Source of the DNA: an uncultured Chloroflexia bacterium
GTDB lineage: Bacteria > Chloroflexota > Anaerolineae > Anaerolineales > UBA4823
Assembly: GCA_963698715.1 (NCBI GenBank)
Contig: CAVORW010000004.1
Span: 697,550 to 761,549, forward strand
Reading direction: 5' to 3'
DNA: 64,000 bases
Shown here: in pieces, positions 1,862-64,000 of the stretch
Position numbering within the stretch: the first letter of the stretch is position 1
Layout: each line of letters opens with the position of its first letter
Notes under the pieces: generated by a model
The model's database searches: none
Told to the model about the DNA's origin: nothing
What the model saw: only the letters and a program-made list of their open reading frames with translations
Program-made: the position numbers and the translations under genes

Positions 1862-1995
1862 CTTAGTGGTTCTCGCGCTAAATCCTTTGCATACAAAAGA
1901 AGGATGGGTAGTGTTCGGTTTGGACGGCTACACCGTCCAAACTGAACACTACAATCTCTTCTCTTCTTAAGTGACTTGCCGAGAATACCACTTAG
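1862..1995 (-). repeat. Bipartite intergenic cassette, copy A, with nested palindrome
   Basis: Minus strand reads CTAAGTGGTATTCTCGGCAAGTCACTTAAGAAGAGAAGAG, then the hairpin, then TTTTTGTATGCAAAGGATTTAGCGCGAGAACCACTAA. Homologous to 34302..34434, 25599..25674 and 46836..46873. Confidence 0.75.
1908..1952. repeat. REP-like palindrome: 20-bp stem with one G-T pair, 5-nt loop
   Basis: GTAGTGTTCGGTTTGGACGG CTACA CCGTCCAAACTGAACACTAC. On the minus strand it is followed by CCATCCTTCTTTTGT, so it is a plausible terminator for the upstream gene 2028..3266. Confidence 0.8.
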
Positions 1996-2027
1996 TGCGG
2001 CTTTGTGGGAATTCTCTCAAAAAACTG

Positions 2028-3372: not shown

Positions 3373-3489
3373 TGAGATGATTCGAGAGTTTTATTACTCG
3401 GTCTGCGCATCTCAACCCTCGCCAGGCAGTCTTCAGGGATGAGTGGGGTAGATCCCCAGATTTGGGGGTGAACTAAAATCTTGTAGCTG

Positions 3490-3541
3490 TAGTTCGCAAT
3501 TTTCGGGGGCGTTGCACCCAATAATTGCGAACTAAAAAAAA
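3490..3541. repeat. 12-bp perfect inverted repeat with 21-nt loop followed by A8
   Basis: TAGTTCGCAATT (3490..3501) and AATTGCGAACTA (3523..3534), then AAAAAAAA. The run is on the wrong side to be a canonical terminator on either strand. Confidence 0.6.
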
Positions 3542-3701
3542 TTTACAGACTTTTAGCACACCTATCCTGACCTGGGTCAGCAGATAATCATAGATCATTT
3601 GGTACAATTAACGAAACTTCTCAAATGGTCACGTATCGCACGCCTTCTCCTGATATAGAGATGATACCAAGTTAACTCGTTTGTTGTTATTAAAGGTATT
3701 T

Positions 3702-19282: not shown

Positions 19283-19326
19283 AAAAAGGTGCGATTGCCG
19301 GCATACACCGACAATCGCACCTTTTT
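19283..19326. terminator. Bidirectional intrinsic terminator between convergent genes
   Basis: AAAAAGGTGCGATTG, 14-nt loop, CAATCGCACCTTTTT. Confidence 0.7.
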
Positions 19327-25598: not shown

Positions 25599-25674
25599 CT
25601 AAATGGTCTTTTCGGCACGTCACTTAAGAAAAAAGAGCTTGTGTTTGCAAAGAACTTAGCGAAAGAACCACTAA
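25599..25674 (+). repeat. Bipartite intergenic cassette, copy C (no nested palindrome)
   Basis: CTAAATGGTCTTTTCGGCACGTCACTTAAGAAAAAAGAG | CTTGTGTTTGCAAAGAACTTAGCGAAAGAACCACTAA. About 95% identical to the two halves of copy B. Confidence 0.8.
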
Positions 25675-25792
25675 TGCGTGCACTTAAATGTTGTAGATGA
25701 TAAACTTGGGAAACGCTTACAGGTCTCAGCTCACAGCTCAGCCATAATCGCTGCGTACGAACCGACCTGACCGAAATATCGGGAGAAATAAG

Positions 25793-34301: not shown

Positions 34302-34434
34302 TTAGTGGTTCTTTCGCTAAATTCTTTGCAAACATAAGAAGGATATGTGGTGTTCGGTTTGGGCGGCTGCACCGCCCAAACCGAACACCACATTTCTCTT
34401 TTTTCTTATGTGACTTGCCGAAAAGACCATTTAG
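34302..34434 (-). repeat. Bipartite intergenic cassette, copy B, with nested palindrome
   Basis: Minus strand CTAAATGGTCTTTTCGGCAAGTCACATAAGAAAAAAGAG, then the hairpin, then CTTATGTTTGCAAAGAATTTAGCGAAAGAACCACTAA. It ends 16 nt before the purA ATG. Confidence 0.8.
34345..34393. repeat. REP-like palindrome: perfect 22-bp stem, 5-nt loop
   Basis: ATGTGGTGTTCGGTTTGGGCGG CTGCA CCGCCCAAACCGAACACCACAT. Confidence 0.85.
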
Positions 34435-34561
34435 TCCCTCATTATTTTCCATGCGGAATGGTTTTCTTGGTAAGGGTGCTTTGGGAATCTCTGGAGTGGG
34501 GAATTTGGCAACCAAACAACTAAGTCCCCAGCCTGTCTCTGGCCAGGGCAATGCCTGGTCC

Positions 34562-35703: not shown

Positions 35704-35756
35704 GATTGGGTGTTATTGGCAGCGCATGGCAGTGTCAATAACACCCAATCCTTTTT
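35704..35756 (+). repeat. 15-bp inverted repeat with 17-nt loop plus T-tract; a diverged relative of the GGGTGTTA-type palindromes
   Basis: GATTGGGTGTTATTG (35704..35718) and CAATAACACCCAATC (35736..35750), then CTTTTT. It lies 75 nt upstream of the 35830 gene with no upstream plus-strand gene to terminate. Confidence 0.55.
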
Positions 35757-37101: not shown

Positions 37102-37380
37102 TAATCTATCCAGAAGTATTGAGTATTCCTGGGGTGGTATCCTCATCACAGGATTTCCCAGAGACCCTAATTTAAGGTTCTCCGGAATCTCTGCGGGAGA
37201 GTCCCAGCAATTGCCAATGACCCTAATTCAAGGCTAACAAACCTGGCAAGATTCGCTGGTAAAATGAAACACATTTGTATCCAATTTGACAACGATATTA
37301 CGGTAGGCAATCCCACTCTCGTGAATAACGCGATATTGTCAGGCTGGTTAGCCCTAAAATTAATGGAGAGATGATCCATA

Positions 37381-40969: not shown

Positions 40970-41003
40970 CAATCTGCTTACATATTTTTGCCCAGGTGAC
41001 AAT

Positions 41004-41050
41004 AAACCATGCACCCCGACTTCTGCTTCGGGGTGCATGGTTTATTTTTT
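41004..41050 (+). terminator. Rho-independent terminator after dedA
   Basis: AAACCATGCACCCCG, 10-nt loop, CGGGGTGCATGGTTT, then ATTTTTT. Confidence 0.8.
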
Positions 41051-41137: not shown

Positions 41138-41347
41138 TTATTTAGGCACTACCATAGCGGCTTGTAATCCTTTGGGGCTTTCTTCAATCGAAAATTCAAC
41201 CTGCTGTCCTTTTTCCAACCGGCGATAGCCATCACTCTGGATCGAAGAAAAATGGACGAAAACGTCTTCTCCATCCTCACGGCCCAGGAAGCCATAACCT
41301 TTGATATTATTAAACCACTTAACAGTTCCAATGATACGCTCGGTCAT
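41138..41347 (-). CDS. Cold-shock protein (CspA family)
   Basis: [15 protein letters not shown]...[12 protein letters not shown] motifs; 69 aa. Confidence 0.95.
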
Positions 41348-41402
41348 ACAATATTTCTCCGTCTTATAAATAATTTAAAAGCTACACAGTTCCAGGGAAA
41401 TT

Positions 41403-41447
41403 TGGTGAGTTTGGGCGGGCGCTGCCCGCCCAAACTCACCAAATCCT
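41403..41447. repeat. REP-like palindrome: perfect 21-bp stem, 3-nt loop, inside the csp 5'UTR
   Basis: ATTTGGTGAGTTTGGGCGGGC GCT GCCCGCCCAAACTCACCAAAT. Confidence 0.85.
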
Positions 41448-41527: not shown

Positions 41528-41764
41528 TGATCGAAAAACGCCCTGCGAGCGCACGATGCACCTGTTTGGGATTTTTTTATATGAAATTTATGCTGGCAGC
41601 CGAAAAAATTATGATTTCATTGAAGCGTGGGGGGCAAATCAGAATCATGTTTCATTCGGCAGCCGACGTCCGAATGAAACCTTCCTGCCCGGACTGAGAG
41701 TCCCGAGTAGTCCAATCATAAATTCTGTGTATTTGGATTAGTGGTACTCGCTCTAGAATTAAAT

Positions 41765-41811
41765 GGTTGTGTCGGATATTCGGCGATTTTCCCCAAATAT
41801 CCGACACAACC
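41765..41811 (-). terminator. Long hairpin downstream of etfA (possible terminator)
   Basis: GGTTGTGTCGGATATT, 15-nt loop, AATATCCGACACAACC. The minus strand is followed by ATTTAATT. Confidence 0.45.
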
Positions 41812-41824
41812 AAGCCTTCTAAAC

Positions 41825-46835: not shown

Positions 46836-46873
46836 CTTAGTGGTGTTTTCAGCAAGCCACTTAAGAAAATGAG
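46836..46873 (+). repeat. Bipartite intergenic cassette, copy D (5' half only; 3' half degenerate)
   Basis: CTTAGTGGTGTTTTCAGCAAGCCACTTAAGAAAATGAG aligns along the 5' half of copies A-C. Confidence 0.55.
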
Positions 46874-47053
46874 ATATTTTGGTGTGTGAAGTTTGTCCTT
46901 TTCCACTCCTGGCGTTATATTTCAGATCAACTATCGCCATATCAGGGGGTGAAACTGTGCAAAATACGGAAAAGGTCTAACTCAAAATAATCCATCCCCT
47001 TTTCAAAGGACAGCAAATTGGAAATAAAACCACATACATATACTGGAGTAATT

Positions 47054-54514: not shown

Positions 54515-54667
54515 GCCAAACCTTTTTGATGTAAACCTGGGGTCATAGAAATAAACCAGCTCAATTATAGCACATATGTTTTATTATTAAGATTAATGCT
54601 TCCATCTCGCGTAAGGCTTTCCCAAATTCGAAAATCTTGGAAATTTCCACCTAGAAAATGAGTTGCT

Positions 54668-54706
54668 GGGTGTGAGAAAAACGGCAGAGCCGTTTTTCTC
54701 ACACCC
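54668..54706. repeat. Perfect 18-bp palindrome with 3-nt loop in a large AT-rich spacer
   Basis: GGGTGTGAGAAAAACGGC AGA GCCGTTTTTCTCACACCC. Confidence 0.8.
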
Positions 54707-55003
54707 AAATAGCATTCTTGAAAGAGCCTTGCCATCTCGAGCAACCTTAACCTGGTGTCCGGGACTCTCCCAAATAGAATACATACACAAACTGTTATTA
54801 TACCAATACGAAACCGCTCTAGTTTAAAAAATAATTAATATGGGTTAGCACGCCAATAAACGCTTGTTTGCTATTATCCCATCTGGTAGCCAGTTATCAT
54901 CTATAATCATAAGTGTCAGGCAGTTTAAGGCATCGAAACAAAAAAATACAATCCAAGGGCTCAACAACCTGATACCGGAGCTAGCGAAAGGACGGAAACA
55001 GCC

Positions 55004-61864: not shown

Positions 61865-61910
61865 GGGTGTTAGGTTGGATGCGGGGAACGCCGCATCCAA
61901 CCTAACACCC
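61865..61910. repeat. REP-like palindrome: perfect 20-bp stem, 6-nt loop, downstream of htpG
   Basis: GGGTGTTAGGTTGGATGCGG GGAACG CCGCATCCAACCTAACACCC. No U-tract on either side. Confidence 0.85.
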
Positions 61911-61972
61911 GAAAACCTTCCTGAAGGCAAAAGACCCTCTCAGAGACACGACTTTTAAAGCGAGTTGGCTTG

Positions 61973-64000
61973 ATGAACCCTGGCGATCTGTATCTTCTCC
62001 AATCTGCTGTCTGGATCATCCTGCTCGTTTTACTTGTCAGCGTACTAGCGCTATTCCTGCTGGTTCGCTACTGGCAAAAAAACACCCAACATGATCTAAA
62101 ACTGATCCGGTCAGAACTGCGCCGTTACCAGTCCTTACGGCGCGAGCTAGACCTGGCGAGTCTGGGCTACTCGCCCGAAGACCCTGAGCCTTTTGGCCCA
62201 CAGGTTGTGGAATTGGAGGAGCAGCTAATTCATTTAGACCAACAGCTCCAAATCCTGGAAAAGCAGCAGGTGAGCATTCAGGAGAGCACCCGTTTCTCAG
62301 CTGTCTCCCGCTGGAATGCGATCCTCGGCGCGCCTTTCTTGTGGTTCAAGATCCAGCAAGTCACCACAACCCAAAAGAGAAACCTTGCCGGCCTCCAGCC
62401 TCTGATATCAGCCGCGCATAATTCCCTTAAAAAGCTTGTGGGACTGCCCTGGGATATAGCCTTACAGGCCCGCCAGGTCAGAGAGCTTCAACGGCAGCTC
62501 ACTAGCAAAATCGATGAGTTTCGCAACAACAAAGTTCATGGCGACAGTCTGGATGCCCTCTTGCAGCATCAAACCGAGCTTCAGGCTCTTCTCAATCAAA
62601 TACCGGTTTATTTTTATCAAGCTGACCAGCAGGATGTCCTGGAAAAATCCAACTCGCAAACCACCGCTCACGCCCACGCCATCCTGAACGATTCAGGCCC
62701 AAAATTGGAAGCGATGCTCCGCCGAATCGGCCATTGGGAGGTTCAATACACAGACACAACCAGCAAAGTGGCCCAAATGCGCCAGGAGCTCGACCGGTTG
62801 GACCCGCTCCTAGAAAAACCGCCCGAGGGTTTGGACCTGGCTCCCATTCAAACTCAGGTTAGCCAGCTCAAAATCATTGCCCAAAATTTGCAGGCAACTC
62901 TCTCACGACTCGAGATTGAAAGCATGCCAGCTGTCGCAGAAGAGGCCTCGAAAGTTCAACAGGCTGCCAGTGACAACTACCGCCAGTTAAAAAATCCGCG
63001 CCAGCATTACAATGCCCTGAACCAGATCCTATTAGATTTAGGGGATGGGTTAAGCATATTATCTGATCAATTTGCCGCCCTGGGTACCAGTTCCGTCCAC
63101 CCAATAGCCTGGGGAGCCAGCCGGGATGCCCTGACAAAGATTAGCCGCAACGCCGGCGTGATCGGCCCTGCCCAAAAAACGCGCCAGCCCCAACAATTAG
63201 AGCAGGACCTGGCCACTGCTAGCCAGCTCAACACAAGCCATAAAGATCTGGCAGCTAGTTGCCAGCAGCTGGCTGTCCGACACGCCGAGTTGATCAAGCT
63301 GCTGGAAAGCCCTGAGCTCAGCCAGGGCATGACCTGGGTCCAAAGCATTCAATCCATGCTGGGCCGTATCAAAGGGTACGACCCTGGCAATTGGGCCCGC
63401 GCTGATGGCGTTGCAACTTTACCCAATGAATTGCAAAGCCTCTCCCAAAGCCTGCGCAAACTTGTCGGCGACCCCAAGACCCCCATCCCTGAAGCCGACC
63501 TGGCTCTGCGGCTGGACGAGACTCGCCAGCTATCCAGCCGGGTTCAAGAGCTGCGAGCTCGGGTAAATAATGTCCACAATCGCCTGGAACAAATCCAGCA
63601 GATTGAGCGCGACGCGGAACAAAATCTTGAAAGCGCCAGAGCGGCCCTGGCTCAGATTAACTTACTGGCACGCAGCAACACCTTCCTGGCGAGCTTGGCC
63701 ACTCAGGAACTTTCTCGTTCCCAGCGCCAGATCGATCAGCTGACGGCCGAACTCGCCCAGCACGAGCGCGGCCCGCTGGACAAAAAAGCCCGTTCAATTG
63801 CCGCCTTGCTGGACCGTATCACCCAAAATGGCAATCTCTGGGCTGCGCGCCTGGCAAAAGAAATCGAAGCCTTAAAACTGGCTCTGACTGGAAAACTGAA
63901 TGCATTGCAGGCGATCGCCGATCTGGAAGACCCGATTGTGGCGGATACCCAGCGGCTGCAGGCGTCGATCAGGCAGTCGCCGGCCATCGACCAGGTTTAC
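61973..64000 (+). CDS. Membrane-anchored long coiled-coil protein (partial; continues past the window end)
   Basis: My translation: MNPGDLYLLQSAVWIILLVLLVSVLALFLLVRYWQK, then over 640 aa of Q/L/E/R-rich heptad-like sequence with no stop through 64000. It is absent from the track because it has no stop. Confidence 0.7.
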   Translation, partial: MNPGDLYLLQSAVWIILLVLLVSVLALFLLVRYWQKNTQHDLKLIRSELRRYQSLRRELDLASLGYSPEDPEPFGPQVVELEEQLIHLDQQLQILEKQQVSIQESTRFSAVSRWNAILGAPFLWFKIQQVTTTQKRNLAGLQPLISAAHNSLKKLVGLPWDIALQARQVRELQRQLTSKIDEFRNNKVHGDSLDALLQHQTELQALLNQIPVYFYQADQQDVLEKSNSQTTAHAHAILNDSGPKLEAMLRRIGHWEVQYTDTTSKVAQMRQELDRLDPLLEKPPEGLDLAPIQTQVSQLKIIAQNLQATLSRLEIESMPAVAEEASKVQQAASDNYRQLKNPRQHYNALNQILLDLGDGLSILSDQFAALGTSSVHPIAWGASRDALTKISRNAGVIGPAQKTRQPQQLEQDLATASQLNTSHKDLAASCQQLAVRHAELIKLLESPELSQGMTWVQSIQSMLGRIKGYDPGNWARADGVATLPNELQSLSQSLRKLVGDPKTPIPEADLALRLDETRQLSSRVQELRARVNNVHNRLEQIQQIERDAEQNLESARAALAQINLLARSNTFLASLATQELSRSQRQIDQLTAELAQHERGPLDKKARSIAALLDRITQNGNLWAARLAKEIEALKLALTGKLNALQAIADLEDPIVADTQRLQASIRQSPAIDQVY

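Follow-up and report, generated by a model that had tools for sequence, protein, structure and literature searches.

The stretch of DNA considered here (the window) spans 64,000 nt of contig CAVORW010000004.1 (GenBank assembly GCA_963698715.1), derived from an uncultured member of the Anaerolineae. Its genes are of housekeeping function and include purA, purB, purH, uvrA, htpG, csp, the electron transfer flavoprotein (ETF) genes and those of tRNA synthetases. The spacers between them harbor long and frequently perfect palindromes, four of which, located with our own hairpin scan and referred to as copies 1 to 4 (1908–1952, 34345–34393, 41400–41444 and 61865–61910), form the subject of this work. 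A previous description made from the letters of the window (the sequence-only reading) regarded them as one family resembling repetitive extragenic palindromic (REP) elements. [quoted passage not shown]

Palindromes and composite cassettes of the window

The four palindromes, together with the composite elements that house two of them, are as follows.

34302–34435, minus strand: A-type composite element, copy 2, consisting of the R′ module (CTAAATGGTCTTTTCGGCAAGTCACATAAGAA...), the core and the L′ module (...TTCTTATGTTTGCAAAGAATTTAGCGAAAGAACCACTAA)
34345–34393: palindromic core of copy 2 (subfamily S1), ATGTGGTGTTCGGTTTGGGCGG / ctgca / CCGCCCAAACCGAACACCACAT; perfect 22-bp stem, loop of 5 nt
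1863–1996, minus strand: A-type composite element, copy 1, between the stop of a Cys/Met-PLP enzyme gene (2028) and the start of an A2M/Big_5 gene (1785)
1908–1952: palindromic core of copy 1 (subfamily S1), GTAGTGTTCGGTTTGGACGG / ctaca / CCGTCCAAACTGAACACTAC; 20-bp stem, loop of 5 nt
41400–41444: palindrome copy 3, ATTTGGTGAGTTTGGGCGGGC / gct / GCCCGCCCAAACTCACCAAAT; perfect 21-bp stem, loop of 3 nt
61865–61910: palindrome copy 4, GGGTGTTAGGTTGGATGCGG / ggaacg / CCGCATCCAACCTAACACCC; perfect 20-bp stem, loop of 6 nt

Three of these palindromes read as previously described, while the third lies 3 nt to the left of the interval 41403–41447 formerly assigned to it. Stems of 20–22 bp and loops of 3–6 nt agree with the earlier account of perfect or nearly perfect stems, and every copy is indeed intergenic. 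The stem of copy 2 reaches 25 bp if one mismatch is allowed, and the single mismatch in the stem of copy 1 is of the G.T/A.C kind. Copy 2 and its cassette are flanked by the stop of the epimerase gene (34562) and the start of purA (34285), copy 3 occupies the 5′ leader of csp (41138–41347, minus strand) with the start codon 53 nt downstream, and copy 4 begins 31 nt after the htpG stop. Folded as single-stranded DNA, the palindromes reach −22 to −30 kcal/mol, with z scores of −10 to −11 relative to shuffled sequences (−30.2 kcal/mol and z = −10.8 for copy 2).

Hairpins of this length are not expected from the composition of the window, which contains seven with a stem of at least 18 bp (at most one mismatch); among 30 dinucleotide-preserving shuffles, 29 contained none and the remaining one a single hairpin. 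Two of the seven (19283–19326 and 40999–41048) resemble classical bidirectional terminators, located at gene ends with A-tract and T-tract flanks; they differ in sequence from the G/T-armed family and act as an internal contrast. In the remaining five, the 5′ arms are G/T-rich and the stems lack A/T tracts.

Copies 1 and 2 each form the apex of a 134-nt repeat, consistent with their reported nesting in a bipartite cassette. The two cassettes are 82–84% identical and are themselves imperfect palindromes, R′ and L′ being about 70% complementary when compared by eye. In the predicted fold R′ pairs with L′, such that the whole cassette forms one extended hairpin of −64.5 kcal/mol (z about −10). 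None of 80 Anaerolineae and other purA loci contains the cassette, and its R′ pattern has no match in scans of GTDB representative genomes or JGI metagenome contigs. A solo L′ module is present in the related locus L086, and the cassette is lineage-restricted.

Arm similarity and dispersal of the cores

Similarity between arms was expressed as a local alignment score, with P values from composition-preserving shuffles and with 21 arms from distant Anaerolineae genomes as a contrast set. The arms of copies 1 and 2 score 16 of about 20, and their stems differ by two compensatory double changes, in which both arms are altered at two positions; judged by sequence, these copies are true homologues and make up a tight family. 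Copy 3 scores 11 against copy 2 (P = 0.009), exceeding all 21 distant arms (maximum 9), while copy 4 attains a marginal 10 (P = 0.044). Because these scores are modest or marginal, the tight family is limited to copies 1 and 2, and by arm sequence alone copies 3 and 4 would be loose relatives at best. The sharing of arm sequence proposed for all four copies is thus clear for the first two, modest for the third and marginal for the fourth. Two further palindromes had been put forward as possible diverged relatives. The one at 35704–35750 does show a resemblance, not to copy 2 but to copy 4 (score 11, P = 0.004); the arm of the other, 54667–54707, has no significant similarity to copy 2 by local alignment.

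Evidence of dispersal comes from related genomes. The close relatives compared have an epimerase identity of 95% (L081), 96% (L082–L085) or 97% (L086) or, for L210, an HtpG identity of 91%; L207 and L211 belong to one assembly, and L208 represents the same genome as L001. The window is assigned to the Anaerolineae (Chloroflexota) by its purA. Among GTDB representatives, the best match to the window purA is L001 (86% identical), all others being at most 70% identical. The S1 core GTGGTGTTCGGTTTGGGCGG recurs in five related genomes or metagenome contigs, with sites in L082, L208 (two), L207 and L130, none of which is orthologous to a window site. In L082 it lies in the ETF-csp spacer (2396–2450), where its right arm is identical to that of copy 2 at 21 of 21 positions and its left arm has decayed. 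Further copies are present at L208 808–932 and 20462–20582, and at about 1590–1680 in L207, here with a decayed right arm. The JGI contig L130 was the sole real relative in a metagenome scan with a 15-base arm pattern, the remainder being chance or coding matches (e.g. the dehydrogenase VFGLGGIGL motif).

The flanks of these cores are of a different kind from those in the window, since S1 in L082, L207 and L208 is bounded by a terminal inverted repeat (TIR) termed B-type, GGGnGCAnTCAAATTGTGTAGA and its inverse, and not by R′ and L′. B-type TIRs of about 20–26 nt occur in L082, L084, L081, L207 and L208, and in the window at 3466–3562. Additional core subfamilies recur in the same manner. S2 (GGTTCGCAATTTTTCGGG) is shared by window 3490–3534 and L082 8154, S3 (GGTGTGCGTGGGCG) by L081 10993 and L208 9806, and S4 (ATTTGGGGnTGTGAGCGTG), which bears a third TIR flavour, by L208 7592, L207 11317 and L210 8542, in each case at non-orthologous sites. 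Near-identical arms of 17–21 nt are found at unrelated loci of different genomes. When seven S1 copies are compared, 91% of the stem cells are paired and both partners have changed in 7 of the 22 pairs; of 500 shuffles, not one attains any of the five covariation measures. The S1 stems have kept their pairing through compensatory changes.

Long palindromes also occur in more distant Anaerolineae. L010, L020 and L039 carry many perfect ones of 21–27 bp, whose loops measure 3 nt and whose 5′ arms are G/T- or purine-rich; L010 contains seven in 21 kb, and some in these three loci begin TGTGGGGG like the window cores. They may be terminators, members of a related family, or both.

Insertion polymorphism and target-site duplication

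Direct evidence for insertion is provided by four closely related loci, L082 and L084 (two JGI samples), L083 (a third JGI sample) and L085 (a Logan run), which share one epimerase protein sequence and whose aligned flanks are 100% identical. L082 and L084 contain an extra 108 nt, made up of a 98-nt element and a second GTCCTCAGAA, a sequence that is single in L083 and L085. The 98-nt element reads GGAGCACTAAAATGTTGTAGA-TGTGGTTCGCAATTTTTCGGGCG-ca-CGCCCGAAAAATTGCGAACCACA-AAACAAATCTACAGACTTTTAGTGCACCC, and its core is S2, as at window 3490–3534. This is a filled and empty site with a 10-bp target-site duplication, and it shows this sister element to be polymorphic within a population. Exact flanking repeats of 8–11 nt also surround elements at L082 6717 (CCCTGGATTA), L081 13955 (AGTCATTGAG), L207 11317 (GGTTATGTGGT) and L208 859 (CAGAGTTT); in the same test, a repeat of at least 10 nt was found at 1.4% of random positions. 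Target-site duplications are the hallmark of transposition with staggered cuts (DDE-type) and do not arise from single-strand Y1/HUH transposition.

This distinction bears on the origin suggested in the sequence-only reading, which had linked a GTAG or GTGG head in two arms to REP elements mobilised by RAYT (REP-associated tyrosine transposase) enzymes of the Y1/HUH type. The palindromes would then be recognition hairpins in single-stranded DNA and the composites REPIN-like dimers. Much of the general appearance suits this explanation, as the elements are intergenic, palindromic, multi-copy and divided into subfamilies, and whole elements form long hairpins as REPINs do. GTAG is located in or beside many cores (copy 1 starts with it, and B-type TIRs end TGTAGA before the core), and Chloroflexi are reported to contain GTAG REPs (PMC3733652). 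The tag of a REP is unpaired, however, whereas GTAG in copy 1 and GTGG in copy 2 are base-paired with CTAC and CCAC inside the stem, and stems here are 16–27 bp and mostly perfect, compared with 5–13 bp in REPs (PMC3733652). The GTAGA of B-type TIRs likewise pairs with TCTAC on the other side in the L082 fold. The cores in relatives sit between TIRs, and the 10-bp duplication at the polymorphic insertion, with 8–11 nt flanking repeats elsewhere, is also contrary to REP mobilisation. As previously stated, the window contains no RAYT gene, nor any other transposase gene, according to Pfam scans of its open reading frames (ORFs), which returned no Y1_Tnp, and tblastn. With E. coli RayT as query, tblastn gave only noise (E > 0.5) in the window and 88 relatives' loci (1.48 Mb), a result which is weak on its own because RAYTs are single-copy and the search covered 1.48 Mb of loci. 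With the tag paired, the stems too long and target duplications present, the proposed RAYT link is not supported, and mobilisation of this kind is very unlikely.

Derivatives and further elements of the window

Shortened forms of the cassette, isolated TIRs and additional palindromes are scattered through the window. Those marked unstranded have no strand assigned.

25599–25675, plus strand: core-less short A-type form (R′ joined directly to L′), 77 nt, upstream of a solute-binding-protein gene in a divergent spacer
25676–25702, plus strand: solo B-type TIR (TGCGTGCACTTAAATGTTGTAGATGAT), abutting the short cassette; E = 0.0014 with the nhmmer B-TIR profile
46836–46895, plus strand: truncated element, a solo R′ (46836–46869) followed by the half core ATTTTGGTGTGTGAAGTTTG (46876–46895)
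34479–34500, plus strand: fragment resembling a C-type TIR (CTTTGGGAATCTCTGGAGTGGG), adjoining cassette copy 2
3466–3562, unstranded: B-type MITE-like copy, with TIRs GGGGGTGAACTAAAATCTTGTAG and the reverse-complement partner; nhmmer E = 0.0014 and 0.11
54610–54731, unstranded: element with a 19-bp perfect palindrome (54667–54707, TGGGTGTGAGAAAAACGGC), upstream of uvrA in a divergent spacer
35704–35750, unstranded: imperfect palindrome, GATTGGGTGTTATTG...CAATAACACCCAATC, in the spacer from which the epimerase gene and a 423-aa gene diverge
41764–41812, unstranded: palindrome with G/T-rich arms, TGGTTGTGTCGGATATTCGG..., beginning 12 nt past the ETF-alpha stop

The core-less form folds no better than shuffled sequences (z = 0.35), and no junction repeats were found when looked for around it; it may be either the ancestral form or a product of deletion. 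By eye, the half core at 46876–46895 looks like the arm of copy 3, and a C-type-TIR-like stretch is situated to the right of copy 4 (61911–61937); the fragment at 34479–34500 was set, also by eye, against the TIRs of L207 11317, L208 7592 and L210 8542. Within the B-type copy, the core (3490–3534, TAGTTCGCAATTTT...AATTGCGAACTA) belongs to subfamily S2, like the polymorphic L082/L084 element. The element upstream of uvrA is flanked by 8-nt direct repeats (CCATCTCG at 54602–54609 and 54732–54739), and ATGATTGGGTGTTA is common to 35704–35750 and copy 4.

At 37146–37233, two direct repeats 56 nt apart (CCTTGAATTA... and CCTTAAATTA..., minus strand) bracket a 46-nt remnant. At this shared site L082 has a full MITE-like element flanked by CCCTGGATTA and L081 has another element, and the window remnant resembles the eroded trace of an old insertion.

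Turnover of intergenic spacers

The epimerase-purA spacer differs in every group of relatives compared. In the window, where it contains the cassette, it is 277 nt long. L001 has 265 nt and a further, different palindrome, L082–L084 have 175 nt and no long palindrome, L081 has 128 nt and an S3 palindrome, and L086 has only 26 nt and no element. In L086, purA itself (1837–2453) is called as two ORFs of 196 and 233 aa, which suggests a frameshift in that metagenome contig.

Similar differences are observed elsewhere. Copy 3 lies downstream of a conserved promoter-like TTGACA...TGATAA of csp, which encodes a 69-aa cold-shock protein and is below the size limit of the default ORF list. This motif and the first ~70 nt of the leader are kept in relatives, while the rest of the leader, which houses copy 3, is hypervariable; the aligned leaders of L081, L082 and L083 lack copy 3 and vary at exactly that point. 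The spacer upstream of uvrA is 208 nt shorter in L210, with no palindrome and with the 54667 element missing, and in the spacer orthologous to that of copy 1, L207 possesses an S4 element while L208 has no element. In the htpG 3′ spacer, where the window has copy 4, L210 (27 bp) and L211 (28 bp) have different perfect palindromes, and at the position orthologous to 41764–41812, L081 and L082 have unrelated or S1-type palindromes. Elements that seem to be orthologous may differ by about 40% in the core and still be perfectly complementary, as in the htpG 3′ spacer (window and L210) and in the thioredoxin/424-aa spacer (L081 and L082), which may reflect either replacement or a concerted change of both arms. 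The comparison of orthologous spacers that had been called for thus shows differences in presence and absence. Together with the non-orthologous recurrence of cores and the compensatory changes, this supports the view of the palindromes as a real, dispersed, lineage-specific and mobile repeat family and not a set of gene-specific hairpins.

The position of many copies nevertheless invites comparison with ordinary gene-specific intrinsic terminators, often bidirectional, the arm similarity being in that case a by-product of lineage-wide constraints (a G/T-rich 5′ arm and a GC-rich apex). Copies 1, 2 and 4 and the palindrome at 41764 follow gene ends, and a consensus scan finds copy 2 terminator-like on both strands, with T-rich tails on both sides. 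The window possesses classical A/T-tract terminators at 19283–19326 and 40999–41048, the palindromes of L010, L020 and L039 often stand after genes with A-tract...T-tract flanks, and several relatives likewise have a hairpin in these 3′ spacers. Terminators do not, on the other hand, account for near-identical arms of 17–21 nt at unrelated loci in different genomes or for element-length insertion polymorphism with a target duplication. Copies are also located in divergent promoter spacers (window 3490, 35704, 54667 and 25599; L082 8154; L208 9806), which counts against this function because a terminator has no role between divergent promoters. The position of copy 3 is in a 5′ leader, neither copy 3 nor copy 4 has a T-tract, and a core-less cassette and solo modules exist. 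As an explanation of the family, gene-specific termination is accordingly most improbable.

A shared operator, promoter or leader for the A2M-like gene, purA, the solute-binding protein gene and csp was likewise weighed. L′ faces the next gene start in all three cassette copies, although such agreement in orientation would arise by chance with a probability of about 0.25. The copy 1 cassette stands in place of a promoter-like motif, TTCATCCGGTACAATT, conserved in L207 and L208, and the solo L′ of L086 is placed just upstream of a conserved TGCTATAAT. L′ might conceivably supply a promoter. Such a regulon is extremely unlikely given that the downstream genes are functionally unrelated, that the elements are missing from orthologous spacers of close relatives, and that L′ scored no sigma-70-like promoter site and the element has no Rfam family match.

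A probable MITE-like family with palindromic cores

A lineage-specific MITE-like superfamily, in which the palindromes are central cores, is the likely explanation of these data. A full element would consist of an outer TIR, the palindromic core and an inverted copy of the outer repeat, and would be non-coding, non-autonomous and about 95–135 bp long; with this arrangement, the whole element would therefore form one long hairpin when single-stranded. The core would be a perfect palindrome of 16–27 bp with a G/T-rich 5′ arm usually starting TGTGG/TGGGTG. The cores are split into subfamilies, copies 1 and 2 representing S1, and the outer repeats are of at least three flavours, namely the cassette (A), GGGnGCACTAAAATGTTGTAGA (B) and the GGAATTTCTG type (C). 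Movement would presumably take place in trans, by a DDE-type transposase encoded elsewhere in the genome that makes cuts staggered by about 10 bp.

The features that define MITEs, including a size of about 50–500 bp, have been set out previously (PMC10969869). The present elements are small and have no coding capacity (134 nt for the A-type, 77 nt for its short form and 98 nt for the polymorphic B-type). Terminal inverted repeats are seen in the B-type and, as an R′/L′ pair in the fold, in the A-type. Target-site duplications are present at the filled and empty pair (10 bp), at four elements of relatives and, as an 8-nt repeat, at 54667, and copies are dispersed and differ in presence between related genomes. 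Nested or adjacent fragments are represented by the solo B-type TIR at 25676–25702 and the C-type-like stretches at 34479–34500 and 61911–61937. It is on this combination of small size, absence of an ORF, TIRs, target duplications, dispersal, presence/absence polymorphism and nested fragments that the MITE-like assignment is based. Two points are unusual, namely that the palindromic centre is perfect and specific to the subfamily and that there is mixing between cores and outer repeats.

This mixing raises a variant in which the core is a separable fold-back module of ~45–55 bp with TGTGG...CCACA ends, which moves or exchanges between TIR scaffolds or is kept perfect by arm-to-arm correction. 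The flanks of the S1 core are A-type in the window but B-type in relatives, several unrelated cores are accompanied by one TIR type, and a core-less cassette exists. Copies 3 and 4 are bare cores without recognisable TIRs, and the perfectly complementary cores with ~40% difference described above point in the same direction. This variant is considered unlikely.

Several observations weigh against the MITE-like family. No target-site duplication of at least 8 nt was found at the A-type copies of the window or at copies 3 and 4, and no transposase with matching ends was found, the insertion sequences (ISs) of relatives (L210 and L083) having unrelated ends. Copies 3 and 4 are without statistically supported TIRs and their arm similarity is weak, while the homology between A-type outer modules and B-type TIRs consists of short alignments, partly judged by eye. 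Different palindromes in the same 3′ spacers could also mean selection for a hairpin there, and copy number is extrapolated from 64 kb. The window copies without clear duplications would be older insertions, and a target-site duplication for copies 1 to 4 themselves would follow from family membership. The lack of duplications fits this age, because direct repeats around MITEs are known to fade with time (PMC10969869).

If the MITE-like elements are transcribed after insertion, their hairpins may plausibly act as terminators or RNA-end stabilisers, as a side-effect of structure rather than the reason for the family. Side-effects of the terminator or RNA-stabilising kind have been proposed for other MITEs and for SPRITE (PMC10969869).

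Insertion sequences and other features of the loci

Candidate parents among the ISs of relatives were considered and rejected. The IS at L210 14776–16381 encodes a 432-aa protein with N-terminal helix-turn-helix domains only and has multi-repeat ends (GCAAAGTAGAnATGTCCCCT); its ends (TGTCAATGCAAAGTAG) are unrelated to the family, and its exact target duplication of 17 bp (AACACTGCGAACCCACC) is unusually long. An rve_3 (IS481-like) element at L210 19566–21046 has 26-nt inverted ends, CCTGTGCTGG, which are also unrelated. The 165-aa ORF beside an S1 copy in L208 encodes a low-complexity membrane protein. In L083, an IS66-family transposase (95–1138), missing in L082, is located in place of the ETF genes upstream of csp; both this and the rve_3 element of L210 point to active movement of ISs in these populations.

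The possibility of an integron attC site was rejected on sequence and general knowledge, as a GTTRRRY/RYYYAAC core is missing and the neighbouring genes have housekeeping functions and are not cassettes. Rfam, tRNA, plasmid and viral-contig searches gave no matches, and the HIP1 motif (GCGATCGC) is not enriched. The A2M/Big_5-like gene (from 1785 to the window start, minus strand) changes frame near 1208–1219 (tblastn frames −2 then −3) and is a single 1992-aa ORF in L207 and L208, the window version being either a frameshift pseudogene or an assembly error. At the other end, an ORF of at least 675 aa (61973–64000, plus strand) runs off the window and has no Pfam match, and neither has its 899-aa homologue in L210.

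Relation to known repeats and significance

The closest parallels are found among small repeats of other phyla. Correia/NEMIS elements of Neisseria and ERIC elements of Enterobacteria are, like the window family, non-coding and multi-copy in intergenic regions, about 100–150 bp long, with TIRs and one long hairpin. They include size variants formed by internal deletion, for which the 77-nt core-less form and the 134-nt cassette provide a counterpart. Further likenesses are insertion beside promoters and gene ends, and direct repeats in only the younger copies. The differences are a host of another phylum, an unrelated sequence and a target duplication of about 10 bp, that of Correia being TA. 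Furthermore, the perfect 16–27 bp centre varies here by subfamily with similar outer repeats, and the same core occurs with different outer repeats.

Small interspersed repeats with a body resembling a terminator hairpin cluster and insert into or beside one another (PMC10969869), as the adjacent A, B and C fragments of the window do. Host and sequence are again unrelated, T-rich tails are present in only some copies here, and many copies lie where no terminator is needed. Intrinsic bidirectional terminators share the GC-rich perfect hairpin at gene ends and, with copy 2, T-rich tracts on both sides; unlike the present family they are not dispersed as near-identical sequences, have no TIRs or target duplications and do not lie between divergent promoters. 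GTAG-type REPs and REPINs resemble the window elements as intergenic palindromic subfamilies, mostly downstream of genes, with compensatory stem variation and nearby GTAG-like tetranucleotides. REPs have been reported in one Chloroflexi species, and those of the GTAG type have stems of 5–13 bp, often imperfect, an unpaired GTAG tag and associated RAYT genes (PMC3733652). REPs and REPINs have no such TIRs and no target-site duplication and are accompanied by a RAYT gene flanked by REPs, a set of features not encountered here.

Other phyla are well known to contain small repeats with TIRs and a hairpin body, and in this respect the family is not new biology; for the Anaerolineae it is new, as a literature search found no paper linking this group with MITEs. 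A poorly known, uncultured lineage would thus carry an active family of miniature transposons, which reshapes intergenic spacers at operon junctions (epimerase-purA), in 5′ leaders (csp) and in promoter regions. For the annotation of metagenome-assembled genomes, recognition of the family matters in that its hairpins are otherwise misread as terminators, REPs or small RNAs. The elements may be used as strain-level markers in metagenomes, and they would offer a natural system in which to study the persistence of long perfect palindromes in bacterial genomes.

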